A stretch of 40,212 nt of DNA, from IMG/VR virus record IMGVR_UViG_2541047498_000018; one strand, 5' to 3'. This stretch comes from a virus. Lineage: Duplodnaviria > Heunggongvirae > Uroviricota > Caudoviricetes. Every line of letters starts with the position of its first letter. Position 1 is the stretch's first letter. A program made the translations under genes and the position numbers. Below are positions 2,727 through 38,730 of the stretch, in pieces. The notes under the pieces are model-generated. The model was given only the letters and a program-made list of their open reading frames with translations, had not been told where the DNA came from and searched no databases.

Positions 2727-4766
2727 TTATTCTGTTACCGCTTTTTTCACTTCCACCACAATGCTGTCAATCAGCACCGGGTAAGTTGCATTTTTTGTGA
2801 TATCCGTTACGCGGAGTTTGTCCACCGGGAAAGTTCCTACTGGTGACTGCGTCAGGGTAAACGCGGCACCATCCTGACCATCAATAACCGGAATAACCTG
2901 AAGGCTGTTATTTCCTGCAAAACGGAAGGCCAGCGTATGCCATTCATTATCAAATGCACCAAAGGTTCCCAGTTTCTGGTTATTTGTTGCCACTTTTGCA
3001 TTGTGGTACATCACATTCAGGTCTTTTGCGTCTGTCTGGATGTAGAACGATGCCAGCAGATTATTCCCTGCATCCCCTGTCAGGGTGACACCCTGCGGCA
3101 GAGAGGAAACCGGCCAGTAAAGCCCCATGACATACTGGTTTGCCACCAGGTCGCCAGGTACTTTAAAACGACAACTGATTAAACCACCATTTTTCAGCAG
3201 TTCAGCACCAGTACCGGCATCATGATCCAGATACCAAGATGATTTACCTGTTTCCTTGGTCAGTTTCATTGCCTTACCACCTGTGCCTCCTGCATCACTG
3301 ATAATTTCAGCTTTACCGCCAGCCGGCTCCCAGCCCTGGGCTTTCAGATTTCCTTCTGACTCACTGACACGATAAGACAGCAGTGTTGTGGTTACTGCTT
3401 CAGTTTCTGAAGGTGACGGCACTGGTGCTTCAGTTTCAGAAGATGGAACATCGGCTTTTACTGTGGTTCGCCCCGCATGAGTCAGAACTGCCGTGGCCAG
3501 ACGGTCGGAAATAATCCCACGACGTGCCCATGAACTGAAATGGCTGGCCCGGTCCGCAGATGTCCAGGTGGCGGCACTGTTACGCCACGTTGAGCCGTAA
3601 TAACCAATGGATTCAATATCCGGGTCTTCTGCCGGATTGTTGGTGGGTACATTCGCGTCATTTTCATCTGTCATTAATGGAACGAAATGAATGTTTTTAT
3701 CTGTTTTGTTTTTGTAGCCGCCATAGATTGCCTGGTATGCCGGTTCATTTTTCTGTTTCCAGAAATACGTGGTATCGCCACAAATCCACGGAACGCCAGC
3801 AGCACTGCCACCGGTACACTGTTCCGCCTGTTCAGCCAGGTCTGCGCGGAATTTTTCCACCATCGCCAGAAACAGCGCGGAATGCTCCGTCGGCTTCGCA
3901 TCAATATCAAACTCGCCCTGCATCCACACCACAGCAAGCAGGCGGTTTTTCGGGTTCTTCGCCAGTGCCGCTTTTGTCCGGCTGATTAAGTCCTTATACA
4001 GCGGCTTATCCACACCCCAGCGGGCTGAGTCCTCTGAAGCACCCGTGCTGTCACTGTACGTGCCGTCAGCACCCGCCGTGAATGCAGAACCACCACGGCA
4101 GCAGGGAACCAGCAGAATCCCCGCATCTGCCGGAATAAACGGCAGCAGTTTTTTGGCAATGTGAAGCCCCTGACCCACGGTGCCATATTGCCCTTTAGCC
4201 ACATCCGCTTTCGGGTGATTTTTTCCACTCATATCCTGCACATCATGCAGACAGTGGTCGGCCAGAATGATGTCGTTATACTGACAGGCTTTACCTCCCG
4301 GCGTGACTGTACTGCGACGGGCTAACTGCATAATACGCGGTTCGGGGCGGTCATATGTCTCCGGCAGTGGCAGACCTTCACCGTAAGCCATACCGTTTGA
4401 CTGACCAGCAAGAACCACCACGTAATACCAGGAAGGGGAGCTGGAAGCAGTTTCATTTCCTGACGGACGGGTATGTGTTTCAGCATTATCCCAGTCTGAC
4501 GGTTCAGCAGTACCGGCAACATCAGCACTTAACGGAATGACCGCACCAATACCCGCTCCGGTAATTTCCACACTCGGATCACCGGATACTGGCCTTACCC
4601 ACAGGCAATCCCGTGTATTAAAACTGATGAGACAGTCAGCAAATGTCATTCCTCCTTTTGTTTCGGCCGGAGGAAAGGGAGCCTCAAGAAATGCCGCTGT
4701 ACCACCGGAAACTTTAACAGTAAAGTTTCCGGGCATTGATGATAGTTGAACCCATTTGGACGTCAT
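2727..4766 (-). CDS. SASA/SGNH-family carbohydrate O-acetylesterase (NanS-p-like sialate O-acetylesterase) with C-terminal lectin-like domain
   Basis: 679-aa ORF with VVVLAGQSNGMAYGEG (the GQSN nucleophile motif of SASA esterases), a Ser/Thr/Pro/Glu-rich linker (SETEAPVPSPSETEA) and a roughly 250-aa C-terminal domain. This three-part layout matches prophage NanS-p esterases as recalled. Confidence 0.75.
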   Translation of the reverse strand: MTSKWVQLSSMPGNFTVKVSGGTAAFLEAPFPPAETKGGMTFADCLISFNTRDCLWVRPVSGDPSVEITGAGIGAVIPLSADVAGTAEPSDWDNAETHTRPSGNETASSSPSWYYVVVLAGQSNGMAYGEGLPLPETYDRPEPRIMQLARRSTVTPGGKACQYNDIILADHCLHDVQDMSGKNHPKADVAKGQYGTVGQGLHIAKKLLPFIPADAGILLVPCCRGGSAFTAGADGTYSDSTGASEDSARWGVDKPLYKDLISRTKAALAKNPKNRLLAVVWMQGEFDIDAKPTEHSALFLAMVEKFRADLAEQAEQCTGGSAAGVPWICGDTTYFWKQKNEPAYQAIYGGYKNKTDKNIHFVPLMTDENDANVPTNNPAEDPDIESIGYYGSTWRNSAATWTSADRASHFSSWARRGIISDRLATAVLTHAGRTTVKADVPSSETEAPVPSPSETEAVTTTLLSYRVSESEGNLKAQGWEPAGGKAEIISDAGGTGGKAMKLTKETGKSSWYLDHDAGTGAELLKNGGLISCRFKVPGDLVANQYVMGLYWPVSSLPQGVTLTGDAGNNLLASFYIQTDAKDLNVMYHNAKVATNNQKLGTFGAFDNEWHTLAFRFAGNNSLQVIPVIDGQDGAAFTLTQSPVGTFPVDKLRVTDITKNATYPVLIDSIVVEVKKAVTE

Positions 4767-4865: not shown

Positions 4866-5426
4866 TTATTTTTCCGAAACGCTCGCAGGATAATAACGAT
4901 AAAGGGTTGAAAGGCCGATATCAAAAATAAGTGCCACCTGTCTTCGACTGACACCCCCGGCCAGTAAACGCCCGACCTGCTCGTATTGTTCCTGCGTGAG
5001 ACGACGGGGTCTGCCGCCGGTTCGTCCCCTTTCACGGGCAGCTGCAAGACCAGCCCGTGTCCGTTCGACAATTAATTCACGCTCCATTTCTGCCAGCGCA
5101 CCCATTATGTGAAAAAAGAAGCGCCCCATGGGGGTTGACGTATCAATGTTGTCAGTAAGACTACGAAAATTTATCCCCTGTTGCTGTAATTCATCTGTCA
5201 GCGCAACAAGGTGGCGCATACTGCGCCCCAGCCTGTCCAGTTTCCAGACCATCAGTGTGTCACCGGGTTTTAGTTTCTTCAGTGCCCGCTTCAGTCCCGG
5301 CCGCTGTGTCGTTTTACCACTCATTTTATCTTCAAAAATCTGCTCACATCCTGCACATTCCAGCGCATTTCTTTGTAAACCTGTGTTCTGGTCATTTGTT
5401 GATACGCGTATATAGCCAATCAGCAT
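4866..5426 (-). CDS. gin: Gin serine DNA invertase (Hin/Gin/Cin/Pin resolvase-invertase family)
   Basis: 186 aa starting MLIGYIRVSTNDQ (catalytic Ser) with the conserved DRLGRS and GRFFFH...ALAEMERE motifs and a C-terminal HTH. It lies next to a gix-like site and the invertible segment. Confidence 0.95.
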   Translation of the reverse strand: MLIGYIRVSTNDQNTGLQRNALECAGCEQIFEDKMSGKTTQRPGLKRALKKLKPGDTLMVWKLDRLGRSMRHLVALTDELQQQGINFRSLTDNIDTSTPMGRFFFHIMGALAEMERELIVERTRAGLAAARERGRTGGRPRRLTQEQYEQVGRLLAGGVSRRQVALIFDIGLSTLYRYYPASVSEK

Positions 5427-32862: not shown

Positions 32863-33405
32863 TTATTCCTCCGTCAGCGCCACATATTCAGAATGTTTAA
32901 TCTCCTGGCATTCTTCAGGAATACCCCCTTTTATTTCCCTGCCATAAGCGCCTACTTTAAACACCACGCACAGGGCATCACGGGAGAGCGACGGGGTCCA
33001 CCAGGAGTCCATGTTAAACATGGAGGGGATTCTCATTACCCCCAGCTTTTCACAGAGCCAGACAAGGAAATCAGGACGCTTTCTTAACTCGCGTTCAGCG
33101 GCTTCAATCATTGCGGCAATCGCCGGTCCTTCAGGGCATGACTCATCAGGTCTGGCAATAAAGCACGGTCCGTCCCCGATAAAAGCCACATCATCGCGCT
33201 TACGCCAGCCCGCAGGCAGAGCACCAGAAAAATAAAACTCACTGATTACGTCCATGGCAAACGGCTTTAAGCGCAATCCGGCAGCGCCTGTATTTTTCAG
33301 TAATGCCCGAAGAATACTGTTGCGTAGCGGTAAAACAGTCTGTTGATATTTGGTGAAATATTTATTTGTCTGCACACGGTCTAATTTGAAATAAAAATAT
33401 GCCAT
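32863..33405 (-). CDS. Hypothetical early protein
   Basis: 180-aa ORF downstream of gam. No family recognised. Confidence 0.4.
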   Translation of the reverse strand: MAYFYFKLDRVQTNKYFTKYQQTVLPLRNSILRALLKNTGAAGLRLKPFAMDVISEFYFSGALPAGWRKRDDVAFIGDGPCFIARPDESCPEGPAIAAMIEAAERELRKRPDFLVWLCEKLGVMRIPSMFNMDSWWTPSLSRDALCVVFKVGAYGREIKGGIPEECQEIKHSEYVALTEE

Positions 33406-33502
33406 ATATCCTGTTCCTTATTTTCAGTTTACAGGCGCAGGCAGTCCCCTGACGCGAGCGCCATACTTAAAACGATGTGATATTTAAAGATTTAATGCGG
33501 TG

Positions 33503-34033
33503 TTATTTATTCAGTCCGGCGTCCTGTTCAAAAGGCTCGACATAAAAACTTTCAGCGCCTTTATTCACCTTAATACCGGCAATGCCTTTCACTGCATCCG
33601 GCTCCGCCAGGACCGCTTCCTTGTTCACTTCCTCTTTCGTGCGGATGAATCGCTCAAGCCCCATACGGCGCAGCATTTCAATCACACCTTCCACATCACG
33701 GCTGACGCTGCATGATGGATTTCCCAGCCGCCATGACACTGTTCCGGTGGTCAGATTGGCTGTTTTGGTTTTGCCGCCGTTCGTCAGCTCATCGCGGTTG
33801 GTTTTGCACCAGTCCTGAATCCCCTTAAAAAGCACTTTGATTTCTTTTTTAAGGTTTTCAATCTGCGGCGTATAACGGGCGGTGATTTCTGCCACTTCAT
33901 CATTCATCGCCGTTTCCAGCCGTAGCGCCTCTCGCTGAATATCGCCCAGGGTACGGATATCGCGGCTGACTTCTTCGCGGGTCTGCGGTGCAGCCTCGGC
34001 TGCGGCCTTTAATTTTGTAACACGTTTAGCCAT
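33503..34033 (-). CDS. gam: Host-nuclease inhibitor protein Gam (Ku-like DNA end-binding protein)
   Basis: 176 aa. Blocks such as GDIQREALRLETAMNDEVAEI, RDELTNGGKTKTANLTTGTVSWR and ERFIRTKEEVNKEA match Mu Gam as recalled. Confidence 0.9.
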   Translation of the reverse strand: MAKRVTKLKAAAEAAPQTREEVSRDIRTLGDIQREALRLETAMNDEVAEITARYTPQIENLKKEIKVLFKGIQDWCKTNRDELTNGGKTKTANLTTGTVSWRLGNPSCSVSRDVEGVIEMLRRMGLERFIRTKEEVNKEAVLAEPDAVKGIAGIKVNKGAESFYVEPFEQDAGLNK

Positions 34034-34044
34034 TTTGTTTTTCC

Positions 34045-34338
34045 TTATTGCAGTGTGCCTGATGCTTTATGCACGCGGTGGTGTTTAATGATGGCATCCG
34101 CCCCAAAAGCCTGTACAGATGCCTGAAATTCCGCTGAGAGAAACTGAATAATTTCAGGACTGTGATACTGGAGAATACTTGCATAAACGCCACAGAGTGA
34201 CGTCGGCCTGTTATTCGTATCACGTTCTGTTTTTACATCCACACCAATCTTTTCATGCACTTCAACACAGTCATTGCCTGCCGGTTTTTCGTCATGCGAA
34301 ACATGCTTAAATTCAAAAATAACGCGTACTTTGCTCAT
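34045..34338 (-). CDS. Hypothetical early protein, paralogue of the adjacent upstream gene
   Basis: Starts MSKVRVIFEFKH..., similar to the upstream MSKVVRIIFEYKEH.... The track ORF starts 27 nt further upstream. Confidence 0.45.
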   Translation of the reverse strand: MSKVRVIFEFKHVSHDEKPAGNDCVEVHEKIGVDVKTERDTNNRPTSLCGVYASILQYHSPEIIQFLSAEFQASVQAFGADAIIKHHRVHKASGTLQ

Positions 34339-34342
34339 GGAA

Positions 34343-34615
34343 TTACCCCTGCTGATTAAATTCATTACCTTTAATAACCCCGGAACGCATGCTCATATCT
34401 TTCATGAGCGCACTGGCTTTCATTGCCACAAGTTCAGCAAAGTCTCTGCTTTCCGCGAGCATAACCACCCCAAAAATCATGGCGGGTCCATCACCTTTCT
34501 GCTTTATCCCGGTTGAACGTATGTCCAGACTTACCCCCATGCGCACTGTTCCATCAGCGTTTTTATGGATAACGTGCTCCTTGTATTCGAAAATAATGCG
34601 TACGACTTTACTCAT
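34343..34615 (-). CDS. Hypothetical early protein, paralogue of the adjacent downstream gene
   Basis: 90-aa ORF, N-terminus MSKVVRIIFEYKEH. Confidence 0.45.
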   Translation of the reverse strand: MSKVVRIIFEYKEHVIHKNADGTVRMGVSLDIRSTGIKQKGDGPAMIFGVVMLAESRDFAELVAMKASALMKDMSMRSGVIKGNEFNQQG

Positions 34616-34893
34616 CCTCTGGTCCTCGTTCTGTTTGGATAACTGACCCGGCGTCTGACCTCACGGCAGAACCGAATCATGGCATTAAAGGCTTCTTCCT
34701 CCGTCACCGCTTCCGGTATCCCCGGAACCAGTAACTGCTCCTGTTCATCACGTCCATGACGCGCCATAACCTCAATCACATGCCGTACCGTGGCAGGCTT
34801 TCCGGCAACTATCGGCAATGCACCTTCCGGCAGGACGTAACCAAACTCAATAAGACCACTCGACCACGCCCATGCAATGAGATTTTTTTTCAC
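34612..34893 (-). CDS. Hypothetical early protein
   Basis: 93-aa ORF in the early operon. No family recognised. Confidence 0.4.
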   Translation of the reverse strand: MKKNLIAWAWSSGLIEFGYVLPEGALPIVAGKPATVRHVIEVMARHGRDEQEQLLVPGIPEAVTEEEAFNAMIRFCREVRRRVSYPNRTRTRG

Positions 34894-34894
34894 C

Positions 34895-35161
34895 TCACAC
34901 CTCCCAGTAAACCGTGCAGCCGCTGATGCGGGTGGCCTTCACACGGCGGCGCAGGCCGTTGGTCTGTATGGTGATTTCAATTTCACCGGTTCCCTGCACG
35001 TTGCCTACCGGCGGCGTGGTTTTCAGTGCAAAACGTTGCGGATAGCGCTTACTGCGTTCCAGTACCGCACCGGCAAGTTCGGTCAGACGGCGCGCGCTGT
35101 TCAGGGAGTCGAATAAATTCATTTTGTTACCGCAGGATTGCATATTCATATAACACCTCAT
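34895..35161 (-). CDS. Hypothetical early protein
   Basis: 88-aa ORF in the early operon. Confidence 0.35.
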   Translation of the reverse strand: MRCYMNMQSCGNKMNLFDSLNSARRLTELAGAVLERSKRYPQRFALKTTPPVGNVQGTGEIEITIQTNGLRRRVKATRISGCTVYWEV

Positions 35162-35389
35162 TTAGCTGACTTGTTTCGCACCAACAGAACGGCATATTCC
35201 GCTGTAAACGTCTGTCGCACCTTCGCGATCAAGTCCGGCAGATATCACCATTCGTGTGCGGTCATTAAATTCAAAAAGTAAATCGCCACATTCTTTATTT
35301 TCGGCCAGTGAAATCACCTTCACGTTATCGAAATTAACCAGGTAAAAGCGTCCGTAAATATCAGGAATATTAAATACCGCCATAATCAC
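35162..35389 (-). CDS. Small early protein immediately after B (position of Mu kil)
   Basis: 75-aa ORF whose start overlaps the B stop. Assigned by position and size only. Confidence 0.35.
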   Translation of the reverse strand: MIMAVFNIPDIYGRFYLVNFDNVKVISLAENKECGDLLFEFNDRTRMVISAGLDREGATDVYSGICRSVGAKQVS

Positions 35390-36318
35390 ACCTGTGAGAG
35401 TAATTCAGGGTTGGTATAAACCTCTTTAAAGGCCGCATTAATATGTTTTTCTGTCAGCGCCGCGCCTTCACCGCTGGCGGTGAGCCACGCCTGGTTAAGC
35501 GTATGTGTCAGAACGCGTAACGCTCCCGGCTTTTCAGCGATAGCCTGCATGACGGCCAGCTCGGCCTCACCACTGATCCCCCACGCCCTGGCAATGGCCA
35601 GCACATCCGCCTTTTTGGCCTTGCGAAGTTGTTTTGTACGGGCAAGACGGCTGAACAGGCGCGATAAATCATCAAAGGCGCGGCGTCCACCTTTAAACAA
35701 TCCGCGCGGGTTACCAATAAGCACCATCCCGATCCCCGTGGCGTCCTGAATTGCCCGGAGTTGCTCCAGACCGTCAATACCCAGATGATCCGCCTCATCC
35801 ACAATCACCAGTCCACGCGTTCCCATCAGGCGACGGCGGATGGCGCGGGATAATGCCCCTTTGTTCGCGCGGGTGTAATCAATCCCCAGCGCATCGGCCA
35901 GCTCCAGCAGACACTCCGTGACGCTGGAGTGCGCGGGTGACAGGGTGATCATCCAGGTGTTTGGTTGCTCCTGGCAGTAATTACGGGCAGTGGCCGTTTT
36001 ACCCACACCCGGTACGCCCACAATAACGTTAATACAGCCCATCAGACGAACCGCCTGAAACAGTGCGCGCAGCTCCTGGACTGTCTGCGTTTCCACAAAC
36101 TGCGGCGGTTCCGGCAGTGCGCTTTGTTTATTCCAGTTTTCATACCAGGAACGCAGGGAAGCAGCCACAGCGGCGTTATCGCCTTTATATTTCCCCTTGC
36201 GGAAAGCCGATAATGTGCCGTCGGAAATTCCCGCCTCTCTGGCGATGGCATACTGCGTCAGTACGCCGCCATCAATAAGTTCATCAATGGTCTTGATTAC
36301 ATCGTTAATATCAGTCAT
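35386..36318 (-). CDS. B: MuB-like AAA+ ATPase (target DNA activator of transposition)
   Basis: 310 aa with an N-terminal HTH region and Walker A motif GVPGVGKT. Immediately downstream of the transposase gene. Confidence 0.9.
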   Translation of the reverse strand: MTDINDVIKTIDELIDGGVLTQYAIAREAGISDGTLSAFRKGKYKGDNAAVAASLRSWYENWNKQSALPEPPQFVETQTVQELRALFQAVRLMGCINVIVGVPGVGKTATARNYCQEQPNTWMITLSPAHSSVTECLLELADALGIDYTRANKGALSRAIRRRLMGTRGLVIVDEADHLGIDGLEQLRAIQDATGIGMVLIGNPRGLFKGGRRAFDDLSRLFSRLARTKQLRKAKKADVLAIARAWGISGEAELAVMQAIAEKPGALRVLTHTLNQAWLTASGEGAALTEKHINAAFKEVYTNPELLSQV

Positions 36319-36389: not shown

Positions 36390-38480
36390 TCAGGCCAGCG
36401 GGTCATTTTCTTTTAATTTCGCTTCCAGCAACTGCAATCCCCGCTGGAAATTACGCTCGTATTCTTCATCAGGTTCATCGTCAGCGACCGGTTGCTGAAC
36501 GGTCACCGTATTACCCACAGGGCGGTATATGTTTTCCAGCCAGGGCTCCTGCGGCTTGTGCTCCAGCACGTTGACAACCTCATCCTCGGCATCACGGATT
36601 TTTTCCTCTGCGCGTTTACGCATGCCTTTAAGGCGTTGCTGCTGTTTGTAGTATTCCGCGCTGACCGGGAAGGCTTCGCGTTTATTGCCGTCCCATACCG
36701 CCTCGCAAATCACGCTGCCATCCAGGCGACGTACGGTAATTCGTTCGGCATCATGAATGTCATAGCTGATAAGCACCTTACGGCCATGCTCGTCACGCAG
36801 CTCGGGCGCGTAGTAAATATTATTCAGCCAGCGTATTTCACAGCGTCTTACAGGGCGTTCCACCATCGGCCGGAACATATCCCGCAGCTCAACATCGGAC
36901 AGCCATTCAATTTCCGTGTCCTCTTCCGCCAGGCGTTTTTTTCTGAACTCCGCCGGGCTGTAATGCTTGCCGTTCGGCTTCACCGGTAATTCATCGTGCG
37001 GCCGGTTGTTGTACCACTCAACACCGTCACGAATGGCATCAATCAGTTCAGACCAGGACGGTAAATCACGCATCGCTGACTGCTGCCGGGCGTTCAGCCG
37101 TTTGCCCTGTTGCAGGGCAGTAAATGCCGAGCGTAAATCGCGGTTGGTTTTGCGTAACGTCTCGCGATCTGCACCTTTCCCGAAATAGGTGCGGTATTTA
37201 CGGGCTATGCGCATCGGTAATGTGCGGTTAAGCCGTTCGATAATGCCTCGTCCCTGCGGATTACCGGCAATCCCGGTCGGGTGATTAATCCCCAGTCGCG
37301 GCAGTATCCCCACAACCTCCTTATCCAGGATGTCGGCGGTTTCCCCGGAGCCGTTATCCGAGTAATACAGAAACGGTTTGCCGTGATGGCGAATGCCGTG
37401 CTGTATGGCACCGGCTACGGCGAAAACATTTTCAGCCAGGTCAAGGCTCCAGCCCACCACAAAGCGCGTGCCACCGTCGATAACAAAGGTCACTTCCGGT
37501 GCAAATGGCCGACCGTGAACCGGGTGTGCGCATTTCAGCTTCATGCCGTGACCGTCACCAATCCAGACATAATTCACCGGCATTCTGGACCAGTCGCGGC
37601 GCGTGAATCCCTCAAGCTGGCGGTATTCACTGCCGGTCACCCGGCCTTTTTGTTTCACCACTTCCGGCAGTTTCTTCATTGCGCGGCGAATGGTGTCATA
37701 AGACGGCATGATATCGAGCATATAAGGCTCATCAGCGTGCCGGTGCTGCCATTCAGCGACAAAATCCTCGTAAGCCTCGGTCATTGGTCGGCCGTTTGAC
37801 TGGCGATACTGCGCCAGAAATTCGGGCAGCCAGTTAATATCTTCGGCTTTTATTTCCTGGCGCTTACCCGGTGCCAGTAAAAGCAGGCGTTCAGCGGCGT
37901 TCTGCGCCTTGTTAAAGGCCGCAATCCAGCGTTTCAGCGTGATTTCACTTAACGCGCGGCTGTTTCCCTTTTTGGCGTTCGCCGTCTCAACCATTGCCAC
38001 AATGCGCTCGTCCAGCTGCGAACGTGCCAGGTTGTCAACGATAAACCGGATAGCCTTCGCACAGCTGAAACCAGGTTGTTGCGCGACTTTCAGAACTTCG
38101 CTGACGATCGCGATTCGTGCATCAGCCACCTGGCGCTGGTTTTCAGTCAGGGCATTAAGGCGTTCGACCATCAGTTGTGGTGATCCGCGATATGCCTCCA
38201 CCGCATCAACCACGGCAGGCGAGCGTCTGGCCTTTGTCACCACTGGAGCCGGTGATTCATCGACTTTTTGAGTCATCAGTTGCAGGGCGTAGCGTTCACG
38301 TAATGCCTGCTGCGTCACTTCAGGTAAACAGTCGATGCTGTATTCAGTTGCTTTAGAGCCTGAGCGACGACGGGAACAACAGCTTTTCCCTTGTACGTAA
38401 CGTTGTAATGCCTGGCGAATACCTTTTGTTGTAGCAGGCATTCCGGGCGCGCCAATCAGTTCTTTTGCAATGACATACAT
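36390..38480 (-). CDS. A: MuA-like DDE transposase
   Basis: 696-aa ORF immediately after ner, at the Mu A position and size (Mu A is 663 aa). Contains a DGHG motif consistent with a DDE catalytic core. Confidence 0.93.
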   Translation of the reverse strand: MYVIAKELIGAPGMPATTKGIRQALQRYVQGKSCCSRRRSGSKATEYSIDCLPEVTQQALRERYALQLMTQKVDESPAPVVTKARRSPAVVDAVEAYRGSPQLMVERLNALTENQRQVADARIAIVSEVLKVAQQPGFSCAKAIRFIVDNLARSQLDERIVAMVETANAKKGNSRALSEITLKRWIAAFNKAQNAAERLLLLAPGKRQEIKAEDINWLPEFLAQYRQSNGRPMTEAYEDFVAEWQHRHADEPYMLDIMPSYDTIRRAMKKLPEVVKQKGRVTGSEYRQLEGFTRRDWSRMPVNYVWIGDGHGMKLKCAHPVHGRPFAPEVTFVIDGGTRFVVGWSLDLAENVFAVAGAIQHGIRHHGKPFLYYSDNGSGETADILDKEVVGILPRLGINHPTGIAGNPQGRGIIERLNRTLPMRIARKYRTYFGKGADRETLRKTNRDLRSAFTALQQGKRLNARQQSAMRDLPSWSELIDAIRDGVEWYNNRPHDELPVKPNGKHYSPAEFRKKRLAEEDTEIEWLSDVELRDMFRPMVERPVRRCEIRWLNNIYYAPELRDEHGRKVLISYDIHDAERITVRRLDGSVICEAVWDGNKREAFPVSAEYYKQQQRLKGMRKRAEEKIRDAEDEVVNVLEHKPQEPWLENIYRPVGNTVTVQQPVADDEPDEEYERNFQRGLQLLEAKLKENDPLA

Positions 38481-38481
38481 A

Positions 38482-38730
38482 TCATGACGCCTTTCTCATA
38501 TAGCTCTTAACCTGGTATCGACTGGGCCAGATTTCTTCAGGCGATACCCCAAGAGCATCAGCAATTATTTGCTGATACGGTCGGCAAGGAGTACGTAATA
38601 CGCTTTTCAGCGAATCCCTGCTGTAACCAGCCTTTAAAGATAAAGAGCGCAGTGATAAGCCAGCCATGTGTAAGCGCGCCTTGATGATTTCAGGCGGCCA
38701 ATCGTGATCTGAAACTTCTCTTCTACTCAT
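38482..38730 (-). CDS. ner: Ner-like DNA-binding regulator (Ner/Nlp family)
   Basis: 82 aa with QIIADALGVSPEEIWPSRY, resembling the Mu Ner C-terminal region as recalled. Divergent from the repressor gene. Confidence 0.8.
   Translation of the reverse strand: MSRREVSDHDWPPEIIKARLHMAGLSLRSLSLKAGYSRDSLKSVLRTPCRPYQQIIADALGVSPEEIWPSRYQVKSYMRKAS

Follow-up and report, generated by a model that had tools for sequence, protein, structure and literature searches.

Two adjacent small genes in the early region of a Mu-like Escherichia coli prophage are likely distant members of one protein family

Two short genes that lie one after the other in the early region of a Mu-like prophage begin with nearly the same protein sequence and then diverge. 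Do they descend from one ancestor, and did a local duplication create them, or does the likeness end with the N-terminus? The locus belongs to a window of 40,212 nucleotides, the whole stretch of DNA that was analyzed (IMG/VR record IMGVR_UViG_2541047498_000018). An earlier note on this DNA had read the pair as a local gene duplication followed by diversification under host-driven selection. The two ORFs have exactly the coordinates and N-termini given there, both on the minus strand, and the pattern that it described holds as well: 12 N-terminal residues are near-identical, whereas the identity over the entire proteins is only about 20%. The evolutionary interpretation fared less uniformly. 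Here, the two genes are called A and B.

Gene A (34343-34615, minus strand) encodes a protein of 90 aa with a pI of 9.45 that begins MSKVVRIIFEYKEH, and gene B (34045-34338, minus strand) encodes a protein of 97 aa with a pI of 6.64 that begins MSKVRVIFEFKH. Both ORFs are RefSeq coding sequences with the product name hypothetical protein (WP_000049432 and WP_000049306, respectively), and both match a PHROG family over the full length, gene A PHROG 4107 (phrog_4107, E = 1.1e-61) and gene B PHROG 2230 (phrog_2230, E = 1.6e-39). The conserved N-terminal strand common to the two products is encoded by codons 1-13 of gene A (34577-34615, minus strand; MSKVVRIIFEYKE) and codons 1-12 of gene B (34303-34338, minus strand). 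The ATG of gene A overlaps the stop codon of the preceding gene (ATGA), an arrangement by which its translation is predicted to be coupled to that of the preceding gene. The start codon of gene B lies 4 nt past the stop codon of gene A, and gene B is directly upstream of gam. GAGG- or AGGGG-type sequences are found at a suitable distance before both starts, with AGGGG before that of B. The mechanical ORF of B extends to an ATG at 34365, inside A; in RefSeq and in all full-length homologs the start is the MSKV codon at 34338. To judge from the RefSeq annotation, the Shine-Dalgarno-like sequences, the ATGA overlap, the dN/dS ratios of 0.29 and 0.35, and the occurrence in E. coli genomes, A and B are two real protein-coding genes. 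Neither product contains a membrane-spanning hydrophobic segment (GRAVY -0.07 for A and -0.33 for B). The G+C content of the two genes is 0.44-0.45, compared with 0.53 for the whole window. A lower content, 0.41-0.43, is reached in the gap of about 100 nt 3' of gam (33406-33502) and at 35150-35450, over a small gene assigned to PHROG 3375.

Several alleles of the two genes are interrupted. The B variants P0053 and P0061 have C-terminal halves that correspond to an alternative frame at 34026-34223 on the minus strand (…FRHLH…MPSLNATACIKHQAHCNKEKQNG); these are frameshifted copies of B or sequencing errors, and they indicate no second gene. The truncated A variants P0040 and P0068, which belong to two different allele backgrounds, change frame right after Met26-Gly27, at a homopolymer at 34534-34538 (C5 on the plus strand, G5 in gene A, codons 26-27). 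This frame change could be recurrent slippage or sequencing error. A further variant, P0041, seen in 24 contigs including one of 4.67 Mb, stops at the same Gly without the frame-shifted tail.

Taken whole, the window presents a complete Mu-like prophage in reverse orientation, with a sequence identical or almost identical to that of the Sp18-type element of E. coli O157:H7; over 2.1 kb (33400-35500), it matches strain FRIK804 at 100% identity. Genes on the minus strand follow in the order ner (38482-38730), transposase A (36390-38480), transposition protein B (35386-36318), a 73-aa gene of PHROG 3375, a kil-like gene (34895-35149), a gene of PHROG 1518 (34612-34893), genes A and B, and gam (33503-34033). 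The c gene precedes ner in early-strand order, which is thus c, ner, the two transposition genes, small genes, and gam. Transposition protein B is a MuB-like AAA ATPase (PF09077 and PF13401) that marks the start of the accessory early region. The kil-like gene encodes 84 aa and matches phrog_2679 (E = 7.8e-46), with a weak BLASTP match to Mu Kil, and gam belongs to the Mu Gam family (PF07352, E = 1.5e-41; 57% identity to Mu Gam). A consensus scan of the minus strand at 33300-35500 found no promoter-like or terminator-like sites, and an Rfam search of the whole window found no RNA family. For phage Mu, a long early transcript and an uncharacterized semi-essential region have been described (PMC3820752, PMC8705779).

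Because no such signals separate the genes, and given the gene order, the pair can probably be placed in a long early transcript. We infer from the same two observations that A and B belong to the semi-essential early (SEE) region: they lie on the early strand, between transposition gene B and the middle/late regulators, without an intervening terminator. The description of the pair as early genes was thus borne out, since both share the strand of transposition gene B and gam and lie between them with no promoter- or terminator-like site intervening. That A and B are both expressed early is, in our estimate, very probable.

Other small genes of the prophage deserve mention. The 93-aa PHROG 1518 gene, directly upstream of gene A, carries the label 'host nuclease inhibitor', also in some RefSeq records; it neither matches Pfam nor resembles Gam. 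It is present or absent among relatives, and in several of them, such as loci L012 and L047, only the last ~22 codons are left, so this slot is a replaceable cassette too. Like A and B, the PHROG 3375 gene has allele classes that diverge (74-79% identity) between prophages that are otherwise nearly identical. Far from the early genes, a 679-aa protein (2727-4766, minus strand) combines a SASA carbohydrate (sialate-type) acetylesterase domain with a C-terminal DUF6645. It has the Gin-like invertase (4866-5426) on one side and the Mom gene (608-1345) on the other, and is a cargo gene without a counterpart in the phage Mu early region that was examined; it resembles the prophage-borne esterases of EHEC.

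How far does the similarity of A and B extend? BLASTP aligns the two proteins at 33% identity over 55 aa (E = 8e-4). The Smith-Waterman score lies 5.1 standard deviations above shuffled sequences for the local alignment (z = 5.1; 2 of 2000 shuffles reach it), and the global score at z = 5.3 is reached by none of 2000. This pairwise evidence stands for the proteins as wholes but not for their bodies, since outside the first 12-13 residues z falls to 1.3, which is not significant alone. Family profiles were therefore compared. The profile of A was built from E. coli alleles and the 55%-identical P0063, and that of B from E. coli alleles and the 30-36%-identical P0065 and P0067, two proteins that HMMER retrieved when 1.84 billion representatives were searched exhaustively. 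Compared by hhalign, the two profiles align over 62 columns with a probability of 89-92% (E = 2e-6 to 8e-7), and the score exceeds that of column-shuffled B profiles at z = 11, a value that none of 150 shuffles attains. When the profiles are run over the window's 769 six-frame ORFs, each family finds the other first: the best non-self match of the B profile is A (E = 0.0028, 68 positions), and that of the A profile is B (E = 0.066). The profile search of these ORFs found no third copy elsewhere in the window.

One might still suppose that two unrelated small ORFs match at the N-terminus by chance. MSK is a common start in E. coli proteins, and the low overall identity would suit such a coincidence. 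However, the rarity with which shuffled sequences reach the observed pairwise scores, the hhalign result, and the reciprocal best matches all speak against it. Moreover, alleles of both families keep the motif with hardly a change, and it can be recognized in the Salmonella relatives as well. Among A alleles, seven of the 13 N-terminal positions are strictly invariant, and the others vary in one or two sequences only. A chance match is, accordingly, highly improbable.

A more serious alternative is that only the N-terminal ~12 codons are common to A and B, as a module spread by recombination or a 'linker' of exchangeable cassettes, and that the other ~80 residues are unrelated. Residues 1-13 do give nearly all of the pairwise score, and the 5' ends of the genes lie at recombination boundaries, the first ~50 nt of each gene being 88-96% identical among alleles and the body 56-74%. 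PHROGs, which clusters by remote homology, also holds A and B in separate families. On the other hand, when the N-terminal 12-13 residues of both proteins are removed, the probability given by hhalign drops to 8%, but the register of the alignment is unchanged and its score (19.6, compared with 10.4 +/- 2.4 for column shuffles) is reached in only 2 of 300 shuffles. The earlier note had named a short chance match at the N-terminus as the finding that would overturn its reading; the unchanged register indicates that the similarity is not limited in this way. A natural intermediate points in the same direction. The Salmonella protein P0065 bridges the families, with E = 1e-11 against B and, over 59 aa, E = 0.006 against A. 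Its middle (GISVRVRSQGL...GP) is A-like and its C-terminal half (ILKHNAPNIIRFL) is B-like.

The nucleotide sequence bears on the same alternative. The first 31 nt of A and B are 81% identical, and synonymous codons differ at three identical residues (AGT/AGC, TTC/TTT, and CAC/CAT). Such differences in common codons indicate that the match was kept at the protein level and does not reflect a recent DNA copy. Recent gene conversion of the N-terminus was rejected for the same reason, and a recent transfer of DNA at the 5' ends becomes harder to sustain. With the same lengths and predicted element order of the two proteins, described below, these observations leave a confined N-terminal module improbable. 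The preferred reading is that A and B descend from one ancestor over two thirds or more of their length, which we regard as likely. PHROG 4107 and PHROG 2230, both of 'unknown function' and held as two unrelated families, are linked here by profile comparison.

Structure prediction agrees with common ancestry in outline. For B, the AlphaFold2 model (pLDDT 72) contains a hairpin formed by residues 4-20 and 24-39 and a helix at 48-77. For A, the model has a hairpin (7-18 and 24-34), a short strand, and a helix at 56-72; with a pLDDT of 50 it counts as a secondary-structure prediction only. The lengths and the succession strand-strand-helix are alike in both, the agreement of folds being one of element order, since the model of A was too unreliable for more. 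As read from the sequence, one face of the B hairpin carries V/V/F/F and V/V/I/V/V, which makes it amphipathic; the helix is amphipathic as well. Residues conserved across the B family are mostly at hydrophobic core positions. These features suggest a soluble two-layer alpha/beta unit of small size, with an edge strand by which it probably pairs. A structure search found no fold match for A or B.

A possible third relative is found in phage Mu itself. Mu gp7 (formerly E6; Mu_7, AAF01086; phrog_10252) is an uncharacterized early protein of 87 aa, encoded between kil and gam, that begins MAKVIIEIKN. It resembles A and B in size and in its early operon region; unlike the pair, it is present as a single copy and does not adjoin gam in Mu. 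It matches phrog_2230, the family of B, at E = 0.009 over nearly the whole length, and P0065 and P0067 from Salmonella are assigned to that family too. The gp7 profile gives colinear alignments to both proteins: z = 4.1 for A, a score that none of 150 shuffles reaches, and z = 2.8 for B, reached by 2 of 150. When run over the 769 ORFs of the window, it ranks B first and A second, neither E-value being significant. The hhalign probability of gp7 against A or B is only 2-12%, BLAST and HMMER gave no link to either, and a search with a joint A+B profile did not retrieve gp7. Hence gp7/E6 may be a third, distant relative.

We next consider the forces acting on the pair. Gene-wide Nei-Gojobori dN/dS ratios over the fetched loci are highest for A and B, compared with 0.10 for MuB, 0.12 for kil, 0.12 for PHROG 1518, 0.08 for gam, and 0.21 for PHROG 3375. 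Values below 1 support the protein-coding nature of A and B. The two genes are under purifying selection and evolve about three times faster than their neighbors. No gene-wide positive selection was seen in this analysis, and the earlier suggestion of diversification driven by the host is not supported: dN/dS is 0.29 for A and 0.35 for B, and the diversity seen is mainly an exchange of old allele cassettes.

The evidence for exchange is found in the alleles. A second class of B alleles, at 57-61% protein identity, occurs in prophages in which the DNA of the flanking genes is 93-100% identical, and the A alleles fall into classes of about 89%, 81%, and 55% identity. The divergence is confined to the body of one gene and spares its first ~50 nt. 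Furthermore, the classes reassort, so that the 58% B class occurs with three A classes, and in P0046 the two B classes are combined in a chimera. Alleles of A and B are thus swapped among prophages as cassettes the size of one gene, whose boundaries coincide with the conserved 5' ends. A poorly conserved SEE region is the usual picture for transposable phages (PMC8705779).

The distribution of the genes separates the question of common ancestry from that of a local event. Among 5426 complete E. coli genomes, gene A is present in 228 and gene B in 232, nearly always together. Gene A has 41 homologs at 55-97% identity, almost all from E. coli, and an A-type gene was observed only alongside B (41 of 41 IMG/VR loci, and L047). 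By contrast, B-like genes stand alone in L044, L045, and L046. In the Salmonella enterica loci L044 and L045, the order is kil, a PHROG-1518-like gene, the B-like gene, and a DUF3164 gene instead of gam; in L046, it is kil, the B-like gene, and gam. The survey of copy number that the earlier note had proposed thus gave a split picture, with the pair in the E. coli lineage and a single B-like copy in these three loci. The DUF3164 gene encodes 212 aa (L044:5303-5941), and its presence in the gam slot means that the position downstream of the B-type gene is filled by different genes across lineages.

Protein B is 34-36% identical to the single B-like products of Salmonella and other Mu-like prophages, more than it is to A, while MuB of the single-copy prophages is 62-65% identical to MuB here. 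Since A and B differ from each other more than B differs from its single-copy relatives, the split between them is old, deeper than the split between the E. coli and Salmonella prophage lineages. Given the single-copy prophages and the restriction of A to loci with B, a B-type gene next to gam is the widespread basal form and A an added member in the E. coli lineage. Two origins of A are equally possible: a tandem duplication long ago, or recombination that brought in a distant homolog. No lineage with a young A/B duplicate was found among the loci compared. Of the proposed local gene duplication, therefore, the common ancestry is supported by the profile comparison, but the local event is not, the pair being less alike than B and its single-copy relatives elsewhere.

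Beyond these lineages, relatives are scarce. A tblastn search of 50,697 phage records with A and B matched only two records, both of Stx phages with a Mu-like element inserted in them, and in this search neither protein retrieved the other. Word-indexed homolog searches, together with the exhaustive HMMER run of the joint A+B profile over the 1.84 billion representatives, found only 14 proteins at E <= 0.001, which shows the family to be very narrow, too narrow for a deeper alignment. A pattern scan over one genome per species (GTDB) gave no relative.

Natural variants of the pair also exist, that is, prophages without A, with frameshifted or IS-disrupted copies, or with an A-B hybrid; indirectly, they suggest that the genes may be dispensable for plaque formation. 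In E. coli 23CRST049 (L048:2501-5161), an IS66-family element (ISEc22-like; tnpA, tnpB, and transposase) at the 3' end of gene A separates A from B. In the E. coli prophage of GCA_049182865.1, a single 67-aa hybrid gene (L050:2501-2704) lies between kil and gam instead of the pair and consists of A residues 1-49 joined to B residues 80-97. The junction falls in an 8-nt repeat (CCCCAAAA, plus strand) that occurs once per gene (34101-34108 and 34468-34475); the tandem pair can thus collapse by deletion at microhomology.

The same observations bear on whether A and B are two diversified effectors or subunits of one obligate hetero-oligomer, that is, one functional unit. Their almost constant joint occurrence and adjacency in the E. 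coli lineage would be expected of such subunits, and the conserved N-terminal strand could serve as a pairing edge strand. Yet B-like genes occur alone in Salmonella and other prophages, the allele classes of the two genes reassort freely, and the hybrid takes the place of the pair in one prophage. We consider an obligate hetero-oligomer quite improbable and retain the view of two distinct, distantly related proteins.

What these proteins do must be approached by analogy. Pfam, NCBIfam, PADLOC, and PDB sequence profiles contain no match for A or B, and the literature on the protein accessions, on Sp18, and on the Mu early region offers only general statements of an uncharacterized region. Kil, Gam, and GemA, products of the Mu SEE region, are small and have the same operon position as A and B. 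Kil and Gam act by binding to DNA ends or to components of the host. Neither A nor B is related to Kil, Gam, or GemA in sequence or fold. Small, variable accessory proteins of Pseudomonas Mu-like phages, of the anti-CRISPR and Aqs1/Tip type, inhibit host or defense proteins. A and B are analogous to them in being short, lineage-restricted, fast-evolving, exchanged as cassettes, and without a domain match. The anti-CRISPR loci of these phages, however, are in the late region, unlike the early A and B, and we know of no defense system that is affected by either protein.

A scenario compatible with these data is as follows. A and B would be parts of one long early message, which extends from ner over the two transposition genes and kil as far as gam. 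As distant members of one small protein family, they would consist of an N-terminal beta-strand, a second strand that completes an amphipathic hairpin, and an amphipathic helix, with the hydrophobic core kept and the surfaces fully diverged. They may act stoichiometrically soon after induction or infection, through contact with proteins of the host, of a defense system, or of a competing element. The contrast between pI 9.45 and 6.64 suggests that the two probably address different partners. Small Mu SEE products have been described as dispensable (PMC3820752, PMC8705779). A similar role for A and B, as dispensable early proteins that bind a host, defense, or competing-element protein, is proposed on the grounds of position, size, and evolutionary behavior like that of other small SEE products; it is tentative, and we would not yet call it probable. 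Taken together, the reading of A and B as related genes of the SEE region, expressed early, swapped as cassettes, and probably host-binding seems to us reasonably probable. A broader version, which we think rather unlikely, would join A, B, and gp7/E6 in one unrecognized superfamily of early hairpin-plus-helix proteins of ~90 residues from enterobacterial transposable phages, with a conserved N-terminal strand and hydrophobic core and hypervariable surfaces, that inhibit host defense or aid takeover, the allele classes, exchanged as cassettes at the conserved 5' ends, tracking the repertoire of host targets. If it were true, two copies would let a prophage hold two specificities.

In summary, the pair represents ordinary diverged paralogs in a mosaic accessory region; the genes are already annotated, and no new mechanism is involved. 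The sole new element is the link between two PHROG families, possibly with the addition of Mu gp7. The allele cassettes, together with natural single-copy, hybrid, and disrupted variants, lend themselves to comparative tests of function. The pair occurs in about 4% of the complete E. coli genomes, many O157:H7 and other Shiga-toxin strains among them. Small genes without an assigned role abound in the accessory early region of Mu-like phages, and the family link described here slightly trims that uncharted space.
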